NCBI GenBank assembly: GCA_964483035.1 | Contig: CAYZZS010000004.1 | Coordinates: 10,081 to 74,080, forward strand | DNA from: an uncultured Candidatus Saccharibacteria bacterium | Lineage (GTDB): Bacteria > Patescibacteriota > Saccharimonadia > Saccharimonadales > CAYZZS01 | Reading direction: 5' to 3' | DNA: 64,000 bases | In this document: positions 2,705-38,833 of the stretch, piece by piece | Layout: each line of letters opens with the position of its first letter | How positions within the stretch are numbered: position 1 is the stretch's first letter | Notes under the pieces: model-generated | What the model saw: only the letters and a program-made list of their open reading frames with translations | Told to the model about the DNA's origin: nothing | The model's database searches: none | Translations under genes and position numbers: made by a program

Positions 2705-5185
2705 TTAGATAGTCAACACATTTTCGTTCCTCATGAAAGCAGCGTCGTTAATTCCTCCGATTACACGCTCCATCAGCGTATCTTCGCCAAGCTTCACTGT
2801 AAGGTGTATCGGCTGCCCATTACCATTAATCTTGCTGGCTAATTCGTCCATCCAACCTGTATTTCTATCTAGGGGCAGTACTGCCTCACGACCCGCCTCA
2901 CCAACTAAAGCCATTGTTGGTGCGGATATAATACCACCTGTCGCTAGTTTTGGTATTTTTGGAATATTTATACCCTTTCCGCCGACTTCTGGAACCCAAT
3001 CTGGGATCTTGACCTTATTCAGGCCAGCAATGAACGAATTTATGATGTCGATCATGGCGTTAAGAGGGGCTTTTGCAATTGCTGCGAATCCACCAAAGAT
3101 GTTTTTGAAGATTGATTTCACTCCATCCCAGGCTTTACGCCAGTTGCCGCTAAACACACCGCTAATAAAGTCAATAAGGCCATTGAATATCCCGAATATC
3201 GACTTAACCACACTGGCAATTGTTCCTAGTACTGTACCCATTACTCCAGACACAAGTTGACCAATGAATGAGAACGCTGGAGACAGTACCTTTAGTAGAA
3301 AGTTCGACACAGGCACTATGAAGTTGTTATATATATTGAGCGCAGCCTGAACGAGTCTAGCCACAAAGCCGACTACTTCGTTCACAAGGTCTTTCAGGTG
3401 TTCATTCCAGAGGTTACTAAGCTCTTCTAGAAATGGTCGGATAATTGGGGCCAAAACATTATCCCAAACAGACTGGAACAACTTAATTGTGTTATCCACG
3501 AATTGACCAATGCCGTCTAAGATACTGGCTCCATATTTTTGCCAGTTCTCCAGTAATATCCCTGTGAAGTCAGCCCATATCTGGGCTGCTATTTTTAGTG
3601 CAGGGTCAATTGCGTCTTTCCATATAGAGTTGAATACGCCTACGGTGCTATCAATTATGACTGGCCCCCACGTATCAATAGCCGCTTGCACGTCTAGCCA
3701 GAACTGCGTCCACAGCATAGTTATGTTACTCAAGCCAAGCATGACATTGGGTTGTATTGCCGCCCAGGTCTCGGTTAGGTTTTGCCACGCAGCCAGGCCG
3801 AGCTGCTTGATAAGCTCGATGAAGAACCCTATGGCGCTGCCAGCCGCTCCGACAAAAGCTTGAACAGGTGCGCTATCCCATGCTCTTTTCAGGACGTCGC
3901 CTACTTTTCTCAGTGACTCAAGAATTGCCTCTACCTTGGGAGTGACCTTATCCAAGCTCTTGCCAAAGTCTCCAAAGTCCAGCCCACTAAGGTCAGGAAT
4001 ACCTCCACCAGCGCCACCACCACCAGCGGCCGATGCATCTGGCTCTTTTAGGACATTCATTTCATCAAAGGCGGCCAATCCAGCTAGTTCTTTTTTGAGT
4101 TTCTTGGCACTTCCCGCAGCGTCATTCATGCCACTAGAGGCATCTGCTGCGCCAGTACCGATTGCGCCAACAGATTTTGCTGCGTTTTGAGTTGATTTAG
4201 TCATGCTGTCGGCTTGTTTTTTACCAATGCCGAACAATGAACCAAACCAGCTAACAGCCACCATCATTACTTTTATGAAAGCGACTATGTACGGAATAGC
4301 TGCACTTACGGCTCTAGATATGGTGTTAAAGAACCCCGCAATGTTGGCTTGCCCAATGGCGTTCATAATGTCCGCCAGTCCTCGAACAATAGCCGTTCTC
4401 AGGTTAGCTATGGACGTTGCGACGCCGCCAGTAGAGTTTCTGGCCTGCTGCTCAAAGCTTTGGAAGCCAGGCAGCCCCTCTTTGTCCAGTCGAACCACAG
4501 CCATCATAAAGTCATTCATGCTGACTTTGCCCTCACGGAGTGCTGCGCCTAGTGCGTCGGCACTCGCAAAGTTCATAGCGGTAGCAATCTGCTTGAGCTG
4601 TGCGGGCATTGCCGACATAGCAGAGCGCCACTCCATCATATCCGGCTTGCCCTTAGTGTAGGCTTGGCTCAACTGCTCAAGGGCAGTGCGTTGTAGCTCC
4701 ATGGGTGCGCCACCAGCGAGAATGGCATTATTAAGCGCCAGGAACATACTAGTAGAAGCGGCTATGCTCCCGTTAGCACTCGTAAACCGCTGAACTGACA
4801 TAGCAGCGTCATCAAGGGCTGTCGGCAGCCCTTTTAGTTTGTCTGATAATACCTGTATAGATTTTTGTGATAAATCAGCGCTAATGCCTAAGTTTGACAT
4901 TGCGCGAGGAAAGTTATTGAGCGTGTCGAGTCGTTTAACTGCGTCAGATCCTAGAGCGGTGAGCGACCTGAACGCTGATACTAGGGCAGCAGATATAACA
5001 CTTCCTAGCGCAACGGCAGCCGCTCCAATCTTCTTGAATGACTTGGGCATACTCTGCGATACGTTTTTTACAGTCTTACTAATTCCCTCCAACTGGTCAT
5101 TTATCTCAGCAACTTGTTTCTTAAAGTCTGCTGTTTGTGCATTGATAATGACCACTAATTGATCGAGAGTTATGGATGGTGACAT
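2705..5185 (-). CDS. Tail tape measure protein
   Basis: 826 aa, long helical and Gly/Ala-rich, with hydrophobic central segments. It lies directly downstream of the G/GT chaperone pair. Confidence 0.85.
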   Translation of the reverse strand: MSPSITLDQLVVIINAQTADFKKQVAEINDQLEGISKTVKNVSQSMPKSFKKIGAAAVALGSVISAALVSAFRSLTALGSDAVKRLDTLNNFPRAMSNLGISADLSQKSIQVLSDKLKGLPTALDDAAMSVQRFTSANGSIAASTSMFLALNNAILAGGAPMELQRTALEQLSQAYTKGKPDMMEWRSAMSAMPAQLKQIATAMNFASADALGAALREGKVSMNDFMMAVVRLDKEGLPGFQSFEQQARNSTGGVATSIANLRTAIVRGLADIMNAIGQANIAGFFNTISRAVSAAIPYIVAFIKVMMVAVSWFGSLFGIGKKQADSMTKSTQNAAKSVGAIGTGAADASSGMNDAAGSAKKLKKELAGLAAFDEMNVLKEPDASAAGGGGAGGGIPDLSGLDFGDFGKSLDKVTPKVEAILESLRKVGDVLKRAWDSAPVQAFVGAAGSAIGFFIELIKQLGLAAWQNLTETWAAIQPNVMLGLSNITMLWTQFWLDVQAAIDTWGPVIIDSTVGVFNSIWKDAIDPALKIAAQIWADFTGILLENWQKYGASILDGIGQFVDNTIKLFQSVWDNVLAPIIRPFLEELSNLWNEHLKDLVNEVVGFVARLVQAALNIYNNFIVPVSNFLLKVLSPAFSFIGQLVSGVMGTVLGTIASVVKSIFGIFNGLIDFISGVFSGNWRKAWDGVKSIFKNIFGGFAAIAKAPLNAMIDIINSFIAGLNKVKIPDWVPEVGGKGINIPKIPKLATGGIISAPTMALVGEAGREAVLPLDRNTGWMDELASKINGNGQPIHLTVKLGEDTLMERVIGGINDAAFMRNENVLTI

Positions 5186-14694: not shown

Positions 14695-14754
14695 CAAAAT
14701 AAAACGACCCCGCACAGATGTGCAGAGTCGCGTTTTACTGATTACATTATATCA
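14695..14754 (-). promoter_or_regulatory. Cassette copy 3: extended -10 box followed immediately by an intrinsic terminator
   Basis: The minus strand reads TGATATAAT-GTAATCAGT-AAAACGCGACTCTGCACATCTGTGCGGGGTCG-TTTTATTTT. The TGA is the terminase stop codon. Confidence 0.55.
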
Positions 14755-16014
14755 TAATTCGATAAAATGTATGCGCCTGTCGTCCACTTCCCTTGCGTAA
14801 CAAATAATCGCTGCATCAGCTAGGTCAGGTGATCTAAAGCCACGCTTTTTGTAATCATCCTTTGATTCGACCTTACGTTTGCCCTTGTTGTCCATCTTCC
14901 ATTGTCTTGTGGTGAGTTCCATTAACAGGTTAGTATCATGCGGCAATTCAGCCTCACGGATGACTTCGGCCATGTGAAACCACGCCTCACTAATCCAGTT
15001 GGGGTATTTATCATCATCAATCGCCTTAGCCCCGAAGTTCACCGCTTTGATGTTCTTATAGCCTCGGTTCATCATGTCGTCAGTCACGCCACCACCAACG
15101 CCAGTATCATCTATGCGGATTTCCAGCTCCTTATCAAAGCCAACAAAATCTTCTAATAAATCACAGGTTTCAGTCGTGCGCTTCTTGGTGTAGACCGTAT
15201 ACTTGATGGTCTTTAAGCCTTTACGCATCCAGAATACGATTCTATCGTCACCCATGCGGGCAATGTCAGCTCCGACAATCACCGCGCCATCGCCCTTAAC
15301 TTTGCGACTCATTGCCTCTAGTGCAGCAGTACGAGGGATTATAGCGGTATCTCCCTGGCTTACTGGTTCGCCAAGCCACTTATGGGCATAGAGTTCGGGG
15401 TCAGTTTTCTTGTCATGCTCCATCTCCTTGCGGAGCACATCAGGGAATATGCCATACTTTTCTGCAACGTCGTAATTCACCTTGAGAGAAAAAGTATCCT
15501 CTGGCGGATTCATGACGTATTTAACGTACACAGGGTCAAGCTCAGTCATTCGGTTGAATGTAAAAATAAGCTGCGAGCCGTCTTTTCTAACGGTAGGTGA
15601 TAGGATGTCTAGGCTTTCTTCGCTGACAGATTGCGCTTCTTCAACCCAGCAAATATCAATGCCCTCAAGGGACTTAACGCTTTGGGTCGTGCCTTTTTTC
15701 AGCCCCTTGAATATAAAGTTCGACCCCGTAACGGTGTTTATGATTGATGTATTTGTGTACTTAAAGTCTGTGAATTCATACAGCTCGATAATATCTTTAA
15801 GTAGCTGCATGCTGGAGTCATCTATAGAGTTCTGAAGCTCACGAGTACAGAGTATGCGAACCTTGTCTTTTCTAGCCCTTAGTATTAGCGATCTAGCCAC
15901 GCTATGCGATTTCGTGCTGCCTCGACCGCCATAGAAAACCAAATTACGCCACTTAGGGTTAAACAGTTCCTTAAACTCTGCTGGAATATCAACTATCGTT
16001 TCGCTGGTCGTCAT
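14752..16014 (-). CDS. Terminase large subunit
   Basis: 420 aa with the Walker A-like motif [12 protein letters not shown] and a C-terminal nuclease-type region. Confidence 0.85.
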
Positions 16015-16944: not shown

Positions 16945-17105
16945 ACATCCTCCTCAAATTGTTCATAATGCCACGTTATAAATAAATCGTAGATGTAATC
17001 GTAATGGTCTTGGTAGTCCATCGGGTGTTCCATAAGCTTTTCCATGTTGTCTCTGACGAACTCGGCCACCTCATTGGCGATAAGCTCCGGTTTGACGATG
17101 TTCAT
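16941..17105 (-). CDS. Small acidic hypothetical protein
   Basis: I trimmed the start to the ATG at 17105 (MNIVKPELIANEV), which overlaps the GT2 stop as ATGA. Confidence 0.45.
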   Translation of the reverse strand: MNIVKPELIANEVAEFVRDNMEKLMEHPMDYQDHYDYIYDLFITWHYEQFEEDV

Positions 17106-17689
17106 ACCCGTACCCCCTTTTTGAAGTAATCCCACGTTAGACTGCCCACTCGTTTGTTGTAGTAGTAGGCATAAATATCGGTGAATTTGCATGTCGGGTT
17201 TTTAGCTAGAAGCTCCCGATGGACTTTTTGATCTTCGTGGATGCGTACAGGATCGGGGCGGATGTCGCCTAAAAACTCACGCCTGATAAACTTGCCGTTA
17301 CCAACCCATCTATTGACGTTCTCTTTGTATATTCTGCGCTTTCGTCCATCGCTATACTGGATGTTATAGAAGACCAAATCTTCTCCCTTGAGCTGGTTAA
17401 TGACTCTATTTACGTCTGGTAGGAAGTAATCATCGCTATCAAGCTGCACGATATAGTCTGCTGTGGCTTCATCCATGAGTCGAGCGAGTGAGTAGCCTAT
17501 ACCCATGTTTTCATCGTTAGATATAAGGGTAATGCTGCGATTGTCGGATAACTTCTCGATGACTTTTAGGGTGTTGTCGGTGCTAGCGTCGTCGCAGACT
17601 AGTACGTTGCAGTTTCTAGGTATGGAGTTGATAGCTTGCCTGATCAATTCCTCTTGGTTGTACACCGGTATGATTACGTCAACGGTCAT
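17102..17689 (-). CDS. Family-2 glycosyltransferase
   Basis: Contains VIIPVYNQEELIRQAINSI...VCDDASTDNT...QLDSDD, a GT-A fold with DxD-type motifs. Confidence 0.8.
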   Translation of the reverse strand: MTVDVIIPVYNQEELIRQAINSIPRNCNVLVCDDASTDNTLKVIEKLSDNRSITLISNDENMGIGYSLARLMDEATADYIVQLDSDDYFLPDVNRVINQLKGEDLVFYNIQYSDGRKRRIYKENVNRWVGNGKFIRREFLGDIRPDPVRIHEDQKVHRELLAKNPTCKFTDIYAYYYNKRVGSLTWDYFKKGVRV

Positions 17690-18402
17690 TTTTCAAACTC
17701 CGAGGGTTCGGGGAAGTGAGTGCGTAGGTCTTCTACCCACCGTCTAGTTGATAGTATCTCGCCCTCTAAGAGCTTGCCTGTGGTCGTCTTGCGGTCTTTG
17801 TACTGTTTACCGCCAATTTTGTAGATGTTTCCGTAGAGGCTCCTGCTGGCTAGTGTCACTCCTGCGGACTCTTGGACCCTCATTATCTCCAGGCGTTTCT
17901 GCTTGTTGTAGATGATTGGCGCATGGACTTCGTAGTTTTTGGGGTCTTTTATTCCTTGTTCAATAAGGAAGTCTCTGGTCTTGGATTTCGTCCTGAGCCA
18001 TGTGTTATGACCCTTGAATTCTTTTAACTTGCCGTCATAGAGTGGTTCTATCTCGATAGGTTTGGTAATGAAGAAGTCGTCATTGAAGAATATGAAGTCA
18101 TCTGCGACTCGTTCGTCATCCAGTATTGCCTTGACCTTGTTCCTGGTGTCTATGGGCTTGATGTGTGAACGCTTGAAGCCGTCAATCATTGTGATCCTGT
18201 CACTAAACCAATCCTCTTTGTCGCCGCACACAAACACTTCACCGTTCCAGTTGGTGATGTTCTTGAGGGAGCGCATGGAGTAACGTAGCTCTTTGCCTTT
18301 GTCGCTAGTGCGCTTGTAGATATAACAGACTGGATATTTCATAATGTTTAGTTGACCCGATTCCGTGCTGACTGCATATATTTGATTGTGTTGGTAGTCC
18401 AC
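17686..18402 (-). CDS. Stealth-family-like sugar-1-phosphate transferase
   Basis: KELRYSMRSLKNITNWNGEVFVCGD and FFNDDFF resemble the Stealth CR2/CR3 blocks as I recall them. The track start is GTG; an ATG at 18342 is an alternative. Confidence 0.5.
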   Translation of the reverse strand: MDYQHNQIYAVSTESGQLNIMKYPVCYIYKRTSDKGKELRYSMRSLKNITNWNGEVFVCGDKEDWFSDRITMIDGFKRSHIKPIDTRNKVKAILDDERVADDFIFFNDDFFITKPIEIEPLYDGKLKEFKGHNTWLRTKSKTRDFLIEQGIKDPKNYEVHAPIIYNKQKRLEIMRVQESAGVTLASRSLYGNIYKIGGKQYKDRKTTTGKLLEGEILSTRRWVEDLRTHFPEPSEFEK

Positions 18403-18690
18403 CGGCTATGCTTGCGAGGTACGAGATGCTTTTAGTAGCCTAATAAAACGCGCTTGCCCCAGCACGGAAGCAGGCCAGCTATTCGCCCTCCCTTTAAGCA
18501 CTAACTAGGAGGCGCAGCGAGTACTCTGCGCCATATAACTGTCTTTGGAGGGTAACCCAAAGTTAGGGATTGCTCCCTAGTTAACGCTCAATTTGTTAGT
18601 TTTCCAGTGATCTGCCCTAAAAATAGCAGATGTAATCAGTTAAACCTAGTGCTAATGGTTACTTTATTGTAAAATATTTGACAAATTATA
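18403..18690 (-). promoter_or_regulatory. Candidate late promoter, ~236-nt structured leader and terminator-like hairpin ahead of the late operon
   Basis: The minus-strand TATAAT is at 18685-18690. Verified local hairpins lie at 18511-18532, 18543-18562 and 18564-18579. The hairpin 18449-18466 is followed on the minus strand by TTTTATT. Confidence 0.45.
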
Positions 18691-18706
18691 CTACTTATGC
18701 TACTAT
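18678..18706 (+). promoter_or_regulatory. Near-consensus sigma70-type promoter (TTGACA-17 nt-TACTAT)
   Basis: TTGACA is at 18678-18683 and TACTAT at 18701-18706. The promoter sits back-to-back with, and overlaps, the minus-strand TATAAT. Confidence 0.6.
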
Positions 18707-18711
18707 GCATA

Positions 18712-18907
18712 CAGTAAGGTTAAGGTATAAAGGATAGATACTACCTTACAAAACAGCCCGGAAAGTATGGGGAACATCAGTCTCCGCAAGACTGTCATTC
18801 GGCGGAATGTTAAACGGTTCCTTTCATCATCCACCAAGGGCTGTTTTTCTTTTATAAAGAAAGAGGCCCAGGGGATAGACCGGCAGAGCCGGAACCTGGG
18901 CTTTTTT
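18712..18907 (+). ncRNA. Candidate phage small RNA 1 (about 139 nt to the first U run, about 196 nt to the second terminator)
   Basis: Starts at CAGTAAGG, 5 nt after the -10 box. Helices: GTAAGGT/ACCTTAC, CAGCCC(18754)/GGGCTG(18838), CAGTC/GACTG. T runs lie at 18844-18848 and 18902-18907. Confidence 0.5.
18856..18907. terminator. Bidirectional intrinsic terminator
   Basis: The GCCCAGG...CCTGGGC stem is flanked by an A run upstream and TTTTTT downstream. Confidence 0.6.
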
Positions 18908-19007
18908 ATTATACGACATGAAATGCGAAATATCTTCTATCTGTTCCCGTAATTCCTTAGTCATAGCTGCTCAAAACCTCCCACTGTAATAACCCATTTG
19001 TCTAACT

Positions 19008-19038
19008 ATCAAAAATAGAAAAGAGCCCGAAGGCTCTC
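19008..19038 (-). terminator. Intrinsic terminator closing the upstream (early/middle) minus-strand operon
   Basis: The minus strand reads AGAGCCTTCGGGCTCTTTTCTATTTTT. Confidence 0.6.
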
Positions 19039-19259
19039 TTACGCTCGTCTGGAATAACACTATTCTAGCACGAGGCAAGCTTAAGGTACACAGAAATCCT
19101 GATAATAGAAATGGGAGCTGTATGCTCAGCTCCCAGCGTTCTTGGAAAGTGCCATTATTATAGCATTTTCTAGTTCGTCACGCACCACATTCCCGTAGGT
19201 GCTAATTAAAGGTACCCTATCACTGGGCGCCAGGGTTTTGTTTGCTCTGAATTATACTC

Positions 19260-19694
19260 TCATTCACTTCGAGATACAGATTTAATCGTATTTATAACAC
19301 TCGAAACATTCGTTTTTATATTTGGCGTTTTTACGGAGATACTTTGACCAGGTAAGTTGATTTTTACTCTATCACTCATCTCTGCCCCCCCATCTAGTTC
19401 TTTGCGAAGGGTGGCTAGGCGTAATTCATCAGCTCTCTCCATCTGGTCAACCGCTTCTTCAAAGCCAGCCTTAAAGTCAAAGGATTCGTTCATCCCAAGC
19501 ACAAGGCTTTTAGGTCGCTCCAGCTCATCAATCCTTGCCAGCTTCTCAAGGTTTGAGATGAGGGCTTTAATAGCGTCTACTTGGTAGTTAAGCGCCTTTT
19601 CTTCGTCCATACCGCCAGCGCTAGTGTCCATGTTGTATGTGTAGAAACAGTGCTTGATTGAGTCTTCTAGCTCGTCTGTAGTGTTTTTGCTCAT
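19260..19694 (-). CDS. Acidic hypothetical protein
   Basis: 144-aa ORF, the last gene before the terminator. It contains a G7 run (plus-strand C7 at 19385-19391). Confidence 0.5.
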   Translation of the reverse strand: MSKNTTDELEDSIKHCFYTYNMDTSAGGMDEEKALNYQVDAIKALISNLEKLARIDELERPKSLVLGMNESFDFKAGFEEAVDQMERADELRLATLRKELDGGAEMSDRVKINLPGQSISVKTPNIKTNVSSVINTIKSVSRSE

Positions 19695-19948
19695 ACCTTC
19701 GGCTCCTTTAGCTTGTCACGCTCTGCTTGAATAGCCCTTAGTGGGACGACACCATGCTCGTATTTCTGACTTCCTATGAGTGCAATTGGAGTGCCTTTTT
19801 GAGCTTCCAGCCTATCCAGTACCGCTTCTATTTGCTTATTGTGCCAGTCAATGATTGCTTGCTTGGCTTTGCCCATATCGGACTGACGTATATCGCCATC
19901 ATAGAAATCTTCTAGTATCTCATCTAGCTCTTGTGTGTTATCTGTCAT
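19691..19948 (-). CDS. Small hypothetical protein
   Basis: 85-aa ORF with 4-nt overlaps on both sides. Confidence 0.5.
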   Translation of the reverse strand: MTDNTQELDEILEDFYDGDIRQSDMGKAKQAIIDWHNKQIEAVLDRLEAQKGTPIALIGSQKYEHGVVPLRAIQAERDKLKEPKV

Positions 19949-20289
19949 AGCTCTGCCTCTATTTTGGCTATCACTTCTCTAATATCATGCAGCGCCAGCC
20001 TGTAACCGTGCTGCTTCTCTGGCATATGATAGCCGTACCTGGTGGTTAGCTGTTCAGCGGTTGGCATTGACTTGTCTAGCTCTGCTAATAGCTTTAGCTT
20101 TTCGGTGCGGATGAGGTCTAGTAGCTCTTCCTTGGCTGTAGCAAATATCTCGATGTGGCGCTCATCTTGCCACATGGTGTCACTTGCTCCATCAGTAAAC
20201 GCCTGCGATAGTATTTCATCGAGCGTCCGTAGTTCATCTTCACTAGCTTGATTGGTGTCTGTGCTAGTCATCATATCGCCTGTTCTCAA
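19945..20289 (-). CDS. Small acidic hypothetical protein (TDTNQASED N-terminus)
   Basis: 114 aa in the track. The likely start is the MMTSTDTNQ at about 20274. Confidence 0.5.
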   Translation of the reverse strand: MRTGDMMTSTDTNQASEDELRTLDEILSQAFTDGASDTMWQDERHIEIFATAKEELLDLIRTEKLKLLAELDKSMPTAEQLTTRYGYHMPEKQHGYRLALHDIREVIAKIEAEL

Positions 20290-20515
20290 TTTCCTGCTCT
20301 AGCTGTTCTGTTGTATATAGCTTTAGGCTATCAACAGAGCGTGAGTATCCACTGTTTTCAATGCGGTCATCTATTATGCTGGCATAACGACTAATGATTG
20401 TGCCTGTGCCACGCTCACTCCTGTTACCCTCTATCTCGTTTTGCATATTCCATAAAAGCTTAAAGATAGGTCGCTTATCTTCACTAGCTTGATTGGTGTC
20501 TGTGGGGCTGCTCAT
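20264..20515 (-). CDS. Small hypothetical protein (TDTNQASED N-terminus)
   Basis: 83 aa. It shares a perfect 28-nt block with the next gene. Confidence 0.5.
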   Translation of the reverse strand: MSSPTDTNQASEDKRPIFKLLWNMQNEIEGNRSERGTGTIISRYASIIDDRIENSGYSRSVDSLKLYTTEQLEQEIENRRYDD

Positions 20516-20527
20516 AATGATTTGTCC

Positions 20528-20942
20528 TTATTTAGCTCTAAAAATTACTACTGCACTTGGAAAAGGTGCTGAATTGCTAGATCCACCAAACTTGAGGCGA
20601 CCTTTGATAAAACGAACCTCAGCACCCCCCCCCGATAACGTAATCGTGCCACCAGCGAGTGTCAGTTCTTGCAGGTAACAAACAGACGACTAACGTGTTG
20701 CTCTCATACGCCTTTTTAACCCACTTACCAATCTCTCTACCGTAAGGAGGATTCATAAATACTCGTTCACCAGACCAGTCCTGTTCTAAGCCGTCATCAT
20801 CTTTAGTGAAGTAAATCGGACATTTGGCGTTTTCTGGCGTAGCACACGGATCTAGCGTGAAATCAAACTCCTCGTCGAGCTTGTCGAAGAAGTCTTGCGG
20901 CGTAGACCAAAGATCGGTCTTACTACTGAAATGTACCTGCAT
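20528..20942 (-). pseudogene. dam: Phage Dam-family DNA N6-adenine methyltransferase, frame-broken at a G9 tract (candidate phase-variable gene)
   Basis: The N-terminal ORF carries FMNPPYGR and ends ...WWHDYVIGGGC*. Removing one G continues the frame as GGGAEVRFIKGRLKFGGSSNSAPFPSAVVIFRAK*, ending at the TAA 20530-20528. Confidence 0.75.
20625..20633 (-). repeat. Homopolymer G9 (plus-strand C9) inside the methyltransferase gene
   Basis: Counted directly from the sequence: agca-ccccccccc-gataacg. Confidence 0.95.
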
Positions 20943-21176
20943 AATCTCTATCCCTCCTTAATGTAATGTTGTTTAGAAGCGCAGTCTGCCCCACACGGTA
21001 AAGACATCGTCATGCCTCAAGCTCGCTAAGTACCGCTATGGGGTAGGCTACGCTCCATTAAGGTTCTAGGCGAGGGGTTAGCTTGCATCGCACCAGGTCC
21101 TGTTGTTTCAAGGCACACAAGCCAACCATATCCCCGCCTGCTTCTGGACTTACACCCCGCTAGGGGATGCCGGGGA
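20943..21176 (-). ncRNA. Structured GC-rich leader / ncRNA candidate upstream of the methyltransferase
   Basis: Long-range helices verified by hand: 21118-21127 with 21076-21085 (10 bp), and 21040-21053 with 20979-20992 (12 of 14 positions). There is also a nested CCCCG/CGGGG pair. The region ends at the SD sequence AAGGAGGG. Confidence 0.45.
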
Positions 21177-23580: not shown

Positions 23581-23782
23581 ACCTTACTCTCGCTTCCTGA
23601 CAGGACGGATGGTAGATGCCTGCGTCGTGGAGGTATCTGCCGCACCATTTGCATTTTCCGTACTGCCGGTATTTGTTGAGGTCGAAGTTAAGAAGCATGA
23701 GCAAGCGCTGCTCGATCTTCGTTTGAGCTGCTTCTTCGGCTTGTGACATGTCAGGCATAATCTTTCGACGGTCACGCCACAT
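23561..23782 (-). CDS. Small Cys-rich hypothetical protein
   Basis: 73 aa containing KCKWCGRYLHDAGIYHPSCQ. Confidence 0.4.
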   Translation of the reverse strand: MWRDRRKIMPDMSQAEEAAQTKIEQRLLMLLNFDLNKYRQYGKCKWCGRYLHDAGIYHPSCQEARVRCGLQAL

Positions 23783-24059
23783 CCCGCAGCCTTTCCGTTC
23801 CTTTAGCGGTCAAGCGGTAGTAATTGACTCTGACCTTGCTAGGTCCAACTTGCTGATAGGCAACCTTGACGAGTCCTTTTCTCCGAAGTTCGGCGATCCT
23901 TGGCGTTACGCAGCCTTCAATGACGTGCAAGTCCTGGGAAATCTGCCGGTAATGGCAGGGCTGTAGTTTGCCGATAGACCGCAGGACGACCGTTTGGCTG
24001 ACACTGATTTTCTTTGGTTTTTTGTTAGTCCTTTTCTTAAAAAACCGTAAACCCCACAT
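23772..24059 (-). CDS. Winged-helix (MarR-like) DNA-binding protein
   Basis: Contains YRQISQDLHVIEGCVTPRIAELRRKGLV...YYRLTAKG. Confidence 0.55.
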   Translation of the reverse strand: MWGLRFFKKRTNKKPKKISVSQTVVLRSIGKLQPCHYRQISQDLHVIEGCVTPRIAELRRKGLVKVAYQQVGPSKVRVNYYRLTAKGTERLRDVA

Positions 24060-27206: not shown

Positions 27207-27235
27207 TTGACACAAGGTCATTTATTTGCTAAAAT
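27207..27235 (+). promoter_or_regulatory. Near-consensus sigma70-type promoter (TTGACA-17 nt-TAAAAT)
   Basis: TTGACA is at 27207-27212 and TAAAAT at 27230-27235. Confidence 0.6.
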
Positions 27236-27239
27236 CGCA

Positions 27240-27588
27240 ACTCGTAAGTCACAGTATGTGTTCTTACGCACCTTATACCCCCAATTCTAACAGTTTCGGT
27301 CCTTTGGATCGGAGCATATGTTAGGTGTTTTAGAGCGTGCCAATATAAGTTGTTACCCTCCACTTATTGTGGCGCATCCGCTCGTGTAGCGTGATAGCGC
27401 TCTAAAACAAATTATTCCCTTTAACCCCGCGTTCCCCCCTCGTTGTAGTTGAGGCTTGGCGGTAACGACGGACATACCTGAGTGGGCCTAAAGCTGACTT
27501 TGCGAGACAGCTTTAGGAGGCCTTCAAGGTGGGTTGAAGGGTGTAAAGAGCCTCCAGCGGTGCCCACCCCCTCTGGAGGCTCTTTTTA
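27240..27588 (+). ncRNA. Candidate ~350-nt structured ncRNA 2 at the phage/host junction
   Basis: No credible ORF. Verified helices: 27243-27248/27263-27268, 27327-27337/27398-27408 (11 bp perfect), 27487-27496/27508-27517 (10 bp perfect), 27521-27527/27534-27540. A terminator closes the unit. Confidence 0.55.
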
Positions 27589-27590
27589 TT
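27547..27590 (+). terminator. Intrinsic terminator of ncRNA 2
   Basis: AGAGCCTCCAG...CTGGAGGCTCT forms an 11-bp stem followed by TTTTT. Confidence 0.75.
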
Positions 27591-27847
27591 AGAATTACAC
27601 TTATTAGATTCATCTGTTAGGTGCTCTATTCCGAGTGGTATGTCGCTTCGGCATCAGCATTCACTGCATACTTGGTGAGATAATAATTCGGGCTTTTTGT
27701 GGAAATCTTCTTTGTAATGACGAATGAGTCCTCATTATCCTCACATGGATAACCCCCCTTGCCCCAAGGCTGGCGCAGGTGTAGGGAGTTATCTGGCTCA
27801 GACGACTATTACGGGCAGCAAATATTGTAAAATATTTAGAAATATGG

Positions 27848-37263: not shown

Positions 37264-37338
37264 GGCCTCATCGTCTAGCGGTTAGGACACCGGGTTCTCA
37301 TCCCGGCAACCGGGGTTCGATTCCCCGTGAGGTCACCA
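37264..37338 (+). tRNA. tRNA-Glu (anticodon CUC), CCA encoded
   Basis: Cloverleaf built by hand: acceptor GGCCTCA/TGAGGTC, anticodon stem CCGGG/CCCGG with loop TTCTCAT, and T arm CGGGG-TTCGATT-CCCCG. Confidence 0.85.
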
Positions 37339-38833
37339 AAAGAGACTCATTTGACATAGATGGGTCTTTTTTCATGCTTGCTAAGGTGTAAAGTGTGCTT
37401 AATTTGGGCGTTCGAAATTTATTTGTAGTCAGGTCGTATTCAAGCCCTTCTGGAAAGACTAGACGTTGGTAGATTATTTGATGTTCTATCGAGGCGTTAC
37501 TCCAAATTCGTGGTGCGTTCGACATAAAACGCATCGCATAATCTATTGCATCAGTTTTTAGTTCAGATAAAGAGCCGATACTGGTAAGGTCTTCCTGTAC
37601 AGCATCAGACTCAATCTTTATCTTAGCTACAAGGTCCTTCTTCTCATCTACTGTTATCTGTCCTGCAACAAGCATTTCTACAACCTTATTTCTTCGCTCT
37701 GTAAGCTGTTCTAAGACCTTGTGGAGCTTCTTTTGTTTACTGCTTAGGGTTTGCGTCTCTTCACGCCAGACACGTACTATTATCTCTTTTAAGAACTTCT
37801 CCATATCTGGGTCAGGAGTTAGTGATGACAGCAGTTGCAAGAATTGTTCATGTAGCTCTATTGTCTGTACAGATGGGACATGACACCTAGAACAGTGGTA
37901 ACGCGGAGAACGCTTACCCGATCCACCGACTGGACTACTGCCAGTCATATACTTATTACAATTTGCACACACGAGGAAACGTCTCAGAGGAAATTCAGGA
38001 TTATTCTTCTTGTATGTAGCAGCAGTGTTTTTGTTGCTTCTCAGTAGCTCTTGATTACGGTGAAATGTTGCAGGAGTAATAATCCCTTTGAATTTTGAAG
38101 GTATGAGCTGACCCTCTGTGTGACTACTTTGTTCAAGTCCTGCATAGATAGGATTACGCAACATCTTGCTTAGTGCCTGTATCTGCATCGGCTTGCCTGT
38201 AGCAGATTTCAACCCGATACTTTCACACAGCTTAATAAGACTAGCGATTGTGTAGGTACCTGTTGCGTATACTTCTAATACAGTAACCACCTTATCTGCT
38301 ACCCCCTCTACAGGTGCAAGCGTGGATTTCTCAAGTACATCTCTCACATTTCTCAGGCCGTGAGGTGCTTTACTCATACGCCAGCCCTCTTTTGCGTGGG
38401 CTTTCATGTTGTCTTTCACACGGACAGACTTAACCTTGTTGTCATGTTGAGCTAGTACAGCTTCTAAGTTCTGGATAAGCTCCTCATTAACGCTATCCTC
38501 AACACCTGAGTTGATATTCTTGTACTGAACACCTAATTTAGATAACAAGGTGCGTAGTGCGAAAAAGTCTGAAGCATTACGTGTTAGACGGTCTGTCTGG
38601 TATGTGATGAGATAGTGTATGTTACCCTTGTTCGCTTCAAGATACGCTAACATCTCTTTCATGGCAGGACGGTCGAGGGTTTTGGCCGATACACCGTCAT
38701 CGTGGTAGATTTCTTTAACCAGTACATCATTACGTGATGCCCAATCCTGACATAGCTTTTGCTGGATATCGAGACTAGCACCCTCTACTTGTTGAGTAGT
38801 TGATACCCGAAGATAAATAACTGCTTTTTTCAT
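37298..38833 (-). CDS. Large serine recombinase (integrase)
   Basis: The resolvase-type N-terminus is KKAVIYLRVSTTQQ. A recombinase domain, a zinc ribbon (CANCNKYMTG...RYHCSRC) and a coiled coil follow. Confidence 0.9.
   Translation of the reverse strand: MKKAVIYLRVSTTQQVEGASLDIQQKLCQDWASRNDVLVKEIYHDDGVSAKTLDRPAMKEMLAYLEANKGNIHYLITYQTDRLTRNASDFFALRTLLSKLGVQYKNINSGVEDSVNEELIQNLEAVLAQHDNKVKSVRVKDNMKAHAKEGWRMSKAPHGLRNVRDVLEKSTLAPVEGVADKVVTVLEVYATGTYTIASLIKLCESIGLKSATGKPMQIQALSKMLRNPIYAGLEQSSHTEGQLIPSKFKGIITPATFHRNQELLRSNKNTAATYKKNNPEFPLRRFLVCANCNKYMTGSSPVGGSGKRSPRYHCSRCHVPSVQTIELHEQFLQLLSSLTPDPDMEKFLKEIIVRVWREETQTLSSKQKKLHKVLEQLTERRNKVVEMLVAGQITVDEKKDLVAKIKIESDAVQEDLTSIGSLSELKTDAIDYAMRFMSNAPRIWSNASIEHQIIYQRLVFPEGLEYDLTTNKFRTPKLSTLYTLASMKKDPSMSNESLLVTSRGIEPRLPG

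Follow-up and report, generated by a model that had tools for sequence, protein, structure and literature searches.

A Candidate Plus-strand Noncoding RNA Gene in an Exchangeable Module at the Early/Late Boundary of a Saccharibacteria Prophage

The DNA considered here is a 64-kb stretch (the window) of contig CAYZZS010000004.1 from an uncultured Candidatus Saccharibacteria bacterium, part of which is a prophage, and the element in question is a plus-strand unit in the gap between the early and late operons of that prophage. We interpret this unit as a noncoding RNA gene and, more specifically, as an RNA "moron" carried in a swappable 335-bp module (18667-19001), a reading for which belief and doubt are about evenly divided. 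A moron, in the definition of Hendrix and Juhala, is an autonomous accessory unit with its own promoter and terminator that lies between two phage genes. The interpretation is favored because the promoter of the unit is rare, its terminator is one of the strongest in the window, its predicted fold is more stable than those of shuffled sequences, no protein offers an alternative, and the same layout recurs in L007, a mosaic relative from the same study. The sequence features, their rarity, the replacement of the module and the recurrence of the layout can be read directly from the DNA, and a self-contained plus-strand noncoding unit, in which there is no credible open reading frame (ORF), is supported as the most economical reading of them.

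The promoter of the unit (18678-18706, plus strand) consists of TTGACA at 18678-18683, a 17-nt spacer, and TACTAT at 18701-18706, exactly as in the original prediction of a small RNA gene at this locus, and it also has the TG of an extended −10 element at 18698-18699. CAGTAA (CAGTAAGG) lies 5 nt past TACTAT, and the inferred start of the RNA is at 18712/18713. The pattern TTGACA-N16-18-TAYNAT occurs once in the 64 kb, compared with a mean of 0.14 in shuffled sequence; 13 of 100 shuffles contained at least one occurrence. Judged by its sequence, this is the best sigma-70-type promoter in the phage part of the window, and it has its extended −10 type in common with the host-side promoters. An 18-bp quasi-palindrome, TTGTAAAATATTTGACAA (18667-18684), in which 16 of 18 positions agree with the reverse complement, spans the −35 box together with the inferred start of a candidate late promoter on the minus strand, and could function as an operator or as an UP element. 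At 27825-27842, a copy of it that matches at 15 of 18 positions (0.04 in shuffles) covers the −35 box in the promoter of a 197-aa ORF on the host side (plus strand); one regulator, or a common UP element, may serve both promoters.

At its other end the unit is bounded by an intrinsic terminator (18857-18910, plus strand) with a hairpin at 18860-18907 that ends in a T6 tract, where an RNA of ∼196 nt probably has its 3' end. When the DNA upstream of each T5 run in the window was folded, this terminator (core at −20.1 kcal/mol) ranked second among 99 hairpin-plus-T5 sites on both strands, in agreement with the strong terminator that had been placed at 18866-18907; its minus-strand side is weaker and has an interrupted T run. 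The first rank is taken by the terminator of a unit at 27207-27600, the one other plus-strand unit to have a TTGACA-17-TGc promoter. The RNA payload is therefore flanked by a promoter and a terminator of its own, as is characteristic of a moron at the level of sequence.

The 199 nt of the plus strand from 18712 to 18910 have a predicted folding energy of −70.9 kcal/mol (z = −5.3), which none of 200 shuffles equaled or bettered, and both of the stems described in the original prediction were located. The 5' hairpin (18712-18749; −8.8 kcal/mol, z = −2.1) has the stem GTAAGGT/ACCTTAC (18714-18720 and 18743-18749) and is not followed by a U run. The multibranch domain that succeeds it (18750-18850, plus strand; −33.2 kcal/mol, z = −3.3) is closed by AAAACAGCCC/GGGCTGTTTT (18750-18759 and 18838-18847), in which 10 of 10 positions are paired, and then runs into U5; its minimum-energy fold makes up 18% of the ensemble. 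Within the closing stem there is a three-way junction (18760-18837) formed by GGGGAAC/GTTCCTT and the hairpins CAGTCT/AGACTG and CATTC/GAATG. This junction is tRNA-like in its 2-nt and 1-nt connectors and has a TCCACCA sequence downstream, but both a T arm and a 7-nt anticodon loop are missing, and a tRNA identity was rejected. A hammerhead-like CUGAUG on the minus strand was likewise rejected, since it sits within a stem and gives no match in Rfam. It is the closing stem together with the terminator that accounts for most of the significance of the fold. The plus strand is predicted to fold better than the minus strand by 7 kcal/mol and contains five G-U pairs, but it should be noted that the strand is assigned from the promoter and the T6 tract, together with these G-U pairs, and not from the fold.

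The 27207-27600 unit is itself a second plus-strand noncoding unit, with a TTGACA-17-TGcTAAAAT promoter ahead of the strongest terminator of the window. Its predicted RNA is 360 nt long, has a folding energy of −142.5 kcal/mol (z = −7.5) and has no match in Rfam; its 5' hairpin (CGTAAG...CTTACG) resembles the GTAAGGT...ACCTTAC hairpin of the RNA under study. Its position is adjacent to the end of the prophage, beyond an assembly break at ∼27183 and on the host side of it.

Two ORFs overlap the segment, and a small protein as its product is a highly improbable alternative. The 61-aa ORF on the plus strand (18767-18952) has no usable Shine-Dalgarno (SD) sequence and crosses terminator hairpins, as the original prediction had stated. 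The 45-aa ORF on the minus strand (18827-18964) is called in two annotations, those of NCBI and Logan, and is preceded at a distance of 12 nt by GGGAGG, but this spacing is poor and the ORF also crosses terminator hairpins. Neither ORF has a match to a protein family; the 61-aa sequence has no real homologue in 1.84 billion representative proteins, where a single low-complexity match was obtained, and the 45-aa sequence has none besides itself in 5.8e9 clusters. When these spurious ORFs were used as handles for homologous DNA, no homologues were recovered. The annotation of the 45-aa ORF as a "hypothetical protein" is probably spurious.

The gap that contains the unit extends over 917 bp from a 144-aa gene (19260-19694) to the first late gene, for which the NCBI start is 18342. 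In the sense (minus) order it is made up of two promoter-terminator pairs, P1/t1 and P2/t2, the module with the whole of the plus-strand unit, and a structured leader of 324 nt. The early region ends in the promoter-terminator pairs (19010-19170, minus strand): TGCTATAAT at 19170-19162 (P1) is followed by t1 at 19135-19112, and TGCTAGAAT at 19075-19067 (P2) by t2 at 19040-19019. The copies of the phage in three Logan assemblies are identical and come from one study, so that they provide no variation to use, and the comparison with L007 is the most informative. This phage is 92% identical to that of the window in the terL-portal region; in the gap, its DNA is 93% identical at the positions corresponding to 18343-18673 and 100% identical, with P2/t2 included, at those corresponding to 19004-19101, and between these flanks are 236 unrelated bases, in place of exactly the promoter, RNA, and terminator of the unit together with the DNA as far as t2 (18667-19001). 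The unit thus behaves as a moron does in being present in one phage and replaced between conserved flanks in a close relative.

On its opposite strand, the replacement in L007 has a TGcTATAAT promoter, an RNA of ∼50 nt that consists of a hairpin and terminator and bears the signature of the cassettes of the phage (GTAAAGCGCG...GGGGTCTTTTTT), and then a tRNA gene (L007 2275-2348, on the minus strand of that locus, which corresponds to the plus strand of the window; 74 nt, anticodon GGA, 48.7 bits). The tRNA is placed exactly where the window carries its RNA. On the sense strand of the replacement, a promoter, TTTAAA-18-TATAGT, abuts the conserved leader and is back-to-back with the opposite-strand promoter. 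Opposite-strand RNA genes are, as far as the sequences indicate, a recurring feature of this spot, although they are unrelated in sequence. With regard to the tRNA itself, its anticodon would read serine codons but it is without the long variable arm of tRNA-Ser, and it is oriented opposite to all of the phage genes. The RNA of the window is to be regarded as accessory rather than core because L007, which does not have it, retains the leader at 93% identity and because four other relatives (L008, L103, L104, and L022) do not have such a unit. For the same reasons, the role in a lysogeny/lysis switch that the original prediction had suggested goes beyond the evidence; such a role is not required by the comparative data.

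The unit was also predicted to overlap the late promoter, with mutual occlusion, and here the geometry is supportive. The candidate late promoter (18685-18713, minus strand) has a perfect TATAAT at 18690-18685 that is without a TG, together with a poor −35 sequence, TGTATG, at 18713-18708, and would start at ∼18678. Its TATAAT lies inside the spacer of the plus-strand promoter, and 343 nt separate it from the first late ATG downstream. Sense promoters head the late leader in L007 and a comparable leader in the more distant relatives L008, L103, L104, and L022, and in three of these phages are found at comparable positions: TATAGT ∼340 nt upstream in L007, TGGTATAAT ∼300 nt upstream in L008, and TGCTACAAT ∼420 nt upstream in L103. 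The inferred starts at ∼18678 (minus) and ∼18713 (plus) are ∼35 bp apart, and therefore the footprints of polymerase on the two promoters would coincide and simultaneous occupancy would be precluded. The same back-to-back layout is repeated in L007.

The leader that follows the candidate late promoter (18343-18666, minus strand) contains a terminator-like hairpin at 18466-18449 and a conserved hairpin, GCGTTTTA-loop-AAAAGCRTCYYGYAC, also given as GCGTTTTA-loop-AAAAGC. The leader is 93% identical to that of L007 (2504-2834), whereas the protein of the adjacent gene is only 62% identical, and the DNA match that joins leader and gene is 79.7%. The GCGTTTTA hairpin, ∼100 nt upstream of the first late gene, is kept in phages with protein identities down to 46%, and the leader motif is common to L008 (4900-4945), L022 (∼3890-3935), and L103 (461-495); the conserved pattern had 0 matches in IMG/VR and one, a truncated contig, in JGI metagenomes. 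The late leader is context for the RNA gene and not a part of it.

A number of results weigh against the interpretation of the unit as an RNA gene. The inner junction (18760-18837) does not exceed chance in stability (z = −1.65), and the predicted fold of the minus strand comes close to that of the plus strand overall (z = −4.5) and equals it in the core domain (z = −4.0). A covariance model built from the single sequence, when run over 44 sources (43 related loci and the window), recovered no homologue of the RNA but only itself; none was found in exact-word scans of IMG/VR (four scans) and of GTDB genomes (one scan); and when 17000-21000 and the module were compared by BLAST with INPHARED phages and PLSDB plasmids, the intergenic DNA was unmatched. 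A 19-mer match in L109 lies inside coding DNA and was dismissed as chance. A search for antisense targets, which had been proposed with the original prediction and was made in a crude form, gave duplex energies of the RNA with 56 phage translation-initiation regions that were no better than those of shuffled RNAs. No convincing opposite-strand unit is present in L008, L103, L104, or L022. Finally, the late promoter with which the unit would be in competition is proposed from one hexamer together with positional analogy, and is omitted by a promoter scan in view of its weak −35 sequence.

Other searches were also negative. An Rfam comparison, likewise proposed at the outset, assigned the RNA to no family, the families compared including c4, OOP, sar, tracrRNA, 6S, Y RNA, riboswitches, and ribozymes: with Rfam 15 at the gathering thresholds, only two tRNAs were matched in the window, and at E values up to 10, the region 18400-19300 gave only noise (at most 16.5 bits). 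ARAGORN found tRNAs in the window at 37264 and 61373 only, and no tRNA or tmRNA in the RNA under study. The 12 relatives identified in IMG/VR through terL have compact layouts with no equivalent intergenic region.

Some of these results would also be accommodated if the unit acted only in cis, as a decoy or insulator in which an opposite-strand promoter and a bidirectional terminator block early read-through and unactivated polymerase, the RNA being incidental. In such a case the inner fold need not be remarkable nor a target exist, and the two nonhomologous modules of the window and L007 do share their layout and not their RNA; furthermore, the early region is already closed by two promoter-terminator pairs, which suggests strong pressure to insulate this boundary. 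However, the payload in L007 is a bona fide tRNA (48.7 bits), so payloads at this location can be functional, the perfect 10-bp stem and the defined fold exceed the needs of an insulator, and L008, L103, L104, and L022 manage with no such unit. We consider an insulator to be rather unlikely.

The stability of the minus-strand fold raises the further alternative that the segment is transcribed as part of a leader in the sense direction. Late transcription would then start at P2 (19067) or P1 and proceed by antitermination, with 18910-18712 in the leader, and the plus promoter would be a chance occurrence or would drive a minor antisense brake similar to lambda OOP. This would be in keeping with the phage group, in which the late operon is preceded by sense promoters with terminators after them and by long leaders, and with the complete conservation of P2/t2 in L007. 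It is nevertheless judged very unlikely; L007 conserves the true leader but not this segment, and the T6 tract, the consensus promoter, and the G-U pairs all favor the plus strand.

A different function for the plus-strand RNA would be that of antitoxin in a type I toxin-antitoxin system of the Sib/Ibs kind, directed against the minus-strand mRNA of a 24-aa hydrophobic peptide, MFPILSGLFCKVVSILYTLTLLYA, and serving in prophage stabilization or phage exclusion. The candidate toxin ORF (18703-18777, minus strand; ATG at 18777, TAG at 18703) has GGAG 3 nt upstream and a Kyte-Doolittle (KD) hydropathy maximum over 19 residues of 1.94; its size and hydropathy are those of type I toxins, which are shorter than 60 aa and hydrophobic and have a predicted transmembrane helix (PMC8309996). 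Among the 316 ATG-initiated ORFs of 20-35 aa on both strands of the 64 kb, 6 are this hydrophobic (KD of at least 1.9, from a hydropathy calculation only) and 26 have an SD-like sequence, and this is the only one with both; it should be recognized, however, that the thresholds were set after the ORF had been seen, that the T-rich minus strand favors hydrophobic codons, and that the peptide has no homologues. The SD sequence and start codon are predicted to be buried in a stable minus-strand hairpin, as in many type I toxin mRNAs, and the peptide has a P-x-x-x-G motif like those of Fst, Lpt, and SprA1 (PMC8309996), but there is no match to Fst or any other toxin in Pfam or NCBIfam at E values up to 10. 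A strong antitoxin promoter, an accessory module, and a prophage site are typical of type I systems (PMC5848175, PMC6562991). The ORF lies largely inside the RNA (start ∼18712), under its 5' half and the promoter, and the RNA would be antisense to it only if both strands are transcribed. The difficulty here is that no credible minus-strand promoter exists between the bidirectional terminator and the ORF, where there is only TATAAA at 18858-18853 with neither a −35 sequence nor a TG, and the promoter scan lists none on the minus strand from 18983 to 16541. Furthermore, there is no terminator past the toxin stop codon, and the ORF runs through the GGGCTGTTTT stem into the plus promoter. Type I toxins that associate with the membrane had been reported only in Proteobacteria and Firmicutes (PMC8309996). 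A toxin-antitoxin function for the locus is, on balance, unlikely.

Under the interpretation that we prefer, an autonomous RNA gene, host RNA polymerase would start at ∼18713 on the near-consensus extended −10 promoter without phage factors, and, as no phage factor would be needed, the RNA is expected in the lysogen. The transcript would consist of the 5' hairpin and the structured domain of ∼100 nt and would end mainly at the strong terminator (18902-18907), giving ∼196 nt, while a minor form of ∼138 nt may end at U5. Since the RNA promoter would share the same ∼75 bp with the weak late promoter, polymerase on the former would exclude polymerase from the latter until a late activator shifted the balance. 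We infer from the arrangement that both promoters fire and compete, and a target for the RNA is presumed in the same way. A bolder proposal, which we regard as doubtful, is that the locus represents a modular polymerase-partitioning switch that gates the late promoter of this Saccharibacteria prophage, with a payload RNA that varies by strain (a new structured RNA of 140-200 nt here, a hairpin RNA and an unusual tRNA in L007), or else the first type I toxin-antitoxin system to be seen in Patescibacteria. To our knowledge, almost nothing is established about gene regulation in Saccharibacteria or other bacteria of the Candidate Phyla Radiation (CPR). If the RNA is expressed, its gene would be among the earliest small-RNA genes to be described from a phage of Saccharibacteria/CPR bacteria. 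The phage of the window and the near-identical L007, which have different modules atop the late promoter, constitute a natural experiment on promoter competition at the early/late boundary.

The unit can also be compared with a family of short promoter-terminator cassettes in this phage group, of which the original prediction had taken it to be an expanded member. Cassettes on the sense strand are present in the window at 14751-14693, 9192-9105, and 2033-1975 (minus), as well as in L006 (3940), L007 (5881), L103 (3518), and L106 (7883). They have an extended −10 element, TGnTATAAT, followed after 5-8 nt by (C/T)AGTAAAACGCG, a hairpin, and a U run, and are found directly ahead of a late gene, for example that of the portal; five related phages retain the copy between terL and the portal gene, and the changes within its hairpin are compensatory. 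From sequence, these features suggest either antitermination-dependent late expression or abundant RNAs of ∼45 nt. Membership is defined by the TAAAACGCG signature and a hairpin followed by a U run (in the window, L006, L007, L103, and L106), within the pattern TGnTATAAT-N5-8-YAGTAAAACGCG-hairpin-U run. The RNA unit shares with the cassettes (14751, 9192, and 2033 in the window; 2459 in L007) the extended −10 element, the 5-nt gap, and CAGTAA, and the identity of start and spacing that had been claimed is seen with the minus-strand cassettes at 14751 and 2033. However, the similarity is confined to the promoter and the first 6 nt; the TAAA(A/G)CGCG (AAACGCG) signature is absent, the sequence continuing as GGTTAAGG, and the first hairpin is followed by AAAACAGCCC rather than by a U run. 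The unit differs further in having an extra domain of 100 nt and a separate terminator, and the three cassettes of the window are on the sense strand ahead of a gene, whereas the L007 copy at 2459 holds the opposite-strand position that is equivalent to that of the RNA unit.

The prophage extends from 1 to ∼27100 and has every gene on the minus strand, as had been described. On the late side are the tail genes, portal, terL (14752-16014), and terS, followed by a glycosyl-modification pair that consists of a GT2 gene (17102-17689) and a Stealth_CR2-like gene (17686-18342); on the early side, past the intergenic gap, are Dam, HNH, SSB, and exonuclease genes. Bacterial DNA with pth and genes for a histidine kinase and a response regulator is present from 28463 on, and an independent assembly breaks at ∼27183. 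The closest genomic relatives of the Stealth-like protein are from Candidatus Saccharibacteria metagenome-assembled genomes (45-46% protein identity), one of which, L022, also has a terL/portal match with 67% DNA identity; a Saccharibacterium is on these grounds the probable host. In this phage group, the late operon opens with variable sugar-modification genes (17102-18342 in the window, 2626-7414 in L005, 4001-6855 in L104, and 4001-5892 in L106) that encode Stealth_CR2-like, GT2, Gly_transf_sug, UDP-glucose dehydrogenase-like, and polysaccharide deacetylase proteins and methyltransferases. In L007, an inserted IS1595-family transposase gene (1223-2140) separates the two early terminators at a point that corresponds to ∼19102 in the window, and the L002 assembly of the phage of the window also breaks near ∼19102. 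A 511-aa serine recombinase ORF (37264-38833, minus) overlaps the 3' part of a tRNA-Glu gene (37264-37338, plus); it is ∼10 kb past the apparent end of the prophage, with host genes between.

The statement in the original prediction that no protein repressor is visible was too strong. A 95-aa early protein (23772-24059, minus) has a weak match to PadR/MarR winged-helix domains (E = 1e-4, below the Pfam cut-off) and is a candidate phage transcription regulator, and most of the early ORFs are unannotatable. For the 144-aa protein encoded just upstream of the gap, a possible late regulator, a single partial homologue was obtained (P0002, 76% identical over 32% of its length), so that the protein is nearly an orphan; no family was matched, and its AlphaFold model, with a predicted local distance difference test (pLDDT) score of 41.8, is unusable.

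Among well characterized systems, the arrangement of promoters is most readily compared with that of the mom operon of phage Mu. In the absence of the late activator C, RNA polymerase occupies the divergent momP2 promoter, and C moves it to momP1 (PMC4287176). The present locus would likewise have two divergent promoters on one stretch of DNA, but here it is the plus promoter that is clear and its minus-strand partner that is a candidate, the transcript is predicted to be structured and properly terminated, and there is no relationship in sequence. The OOP RNA of lambda and the sar RNA of P22, which are alike in their organization, overlap the cII and ant mRNAs, respectively, and act as cis-antisense RNAs. 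Each is a short RNA that is transcribed from its own constitutive promoter against the direction of the surrounding phage operon and ends at a strong terminator (for OOP, PMC5869508). The RNA described here is 2-3 times longer and, in contrast with OOP and sar, has no known overlapping mRNA unless there is read-through between the early and late regions.

The resemblance to the Sib/Ibs type I systems consists of an RNA of ∼140 nt with a strong promoter that is antisense to a tiny hydrophobic ORF with a buried ribosome-binding site, in a prophage location (PMC8309996, PMC5848175); however, the present locus differs from them in that it is without a promoter or terminator for the toxin, a match to a toxin family, or locus repeats. 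The closest correspondence is with the phage morons, with which the unit has in common a promoter and terminator of its own, insertion between genes, replacement in a close relative, and probable expression in the prophage. It is distinguished from them by its payload, which in morons is usually a protein and here would be a noncoding RNA of no known family, encoded on the opposite strand, for which phage tRNA genes offer a parallel.

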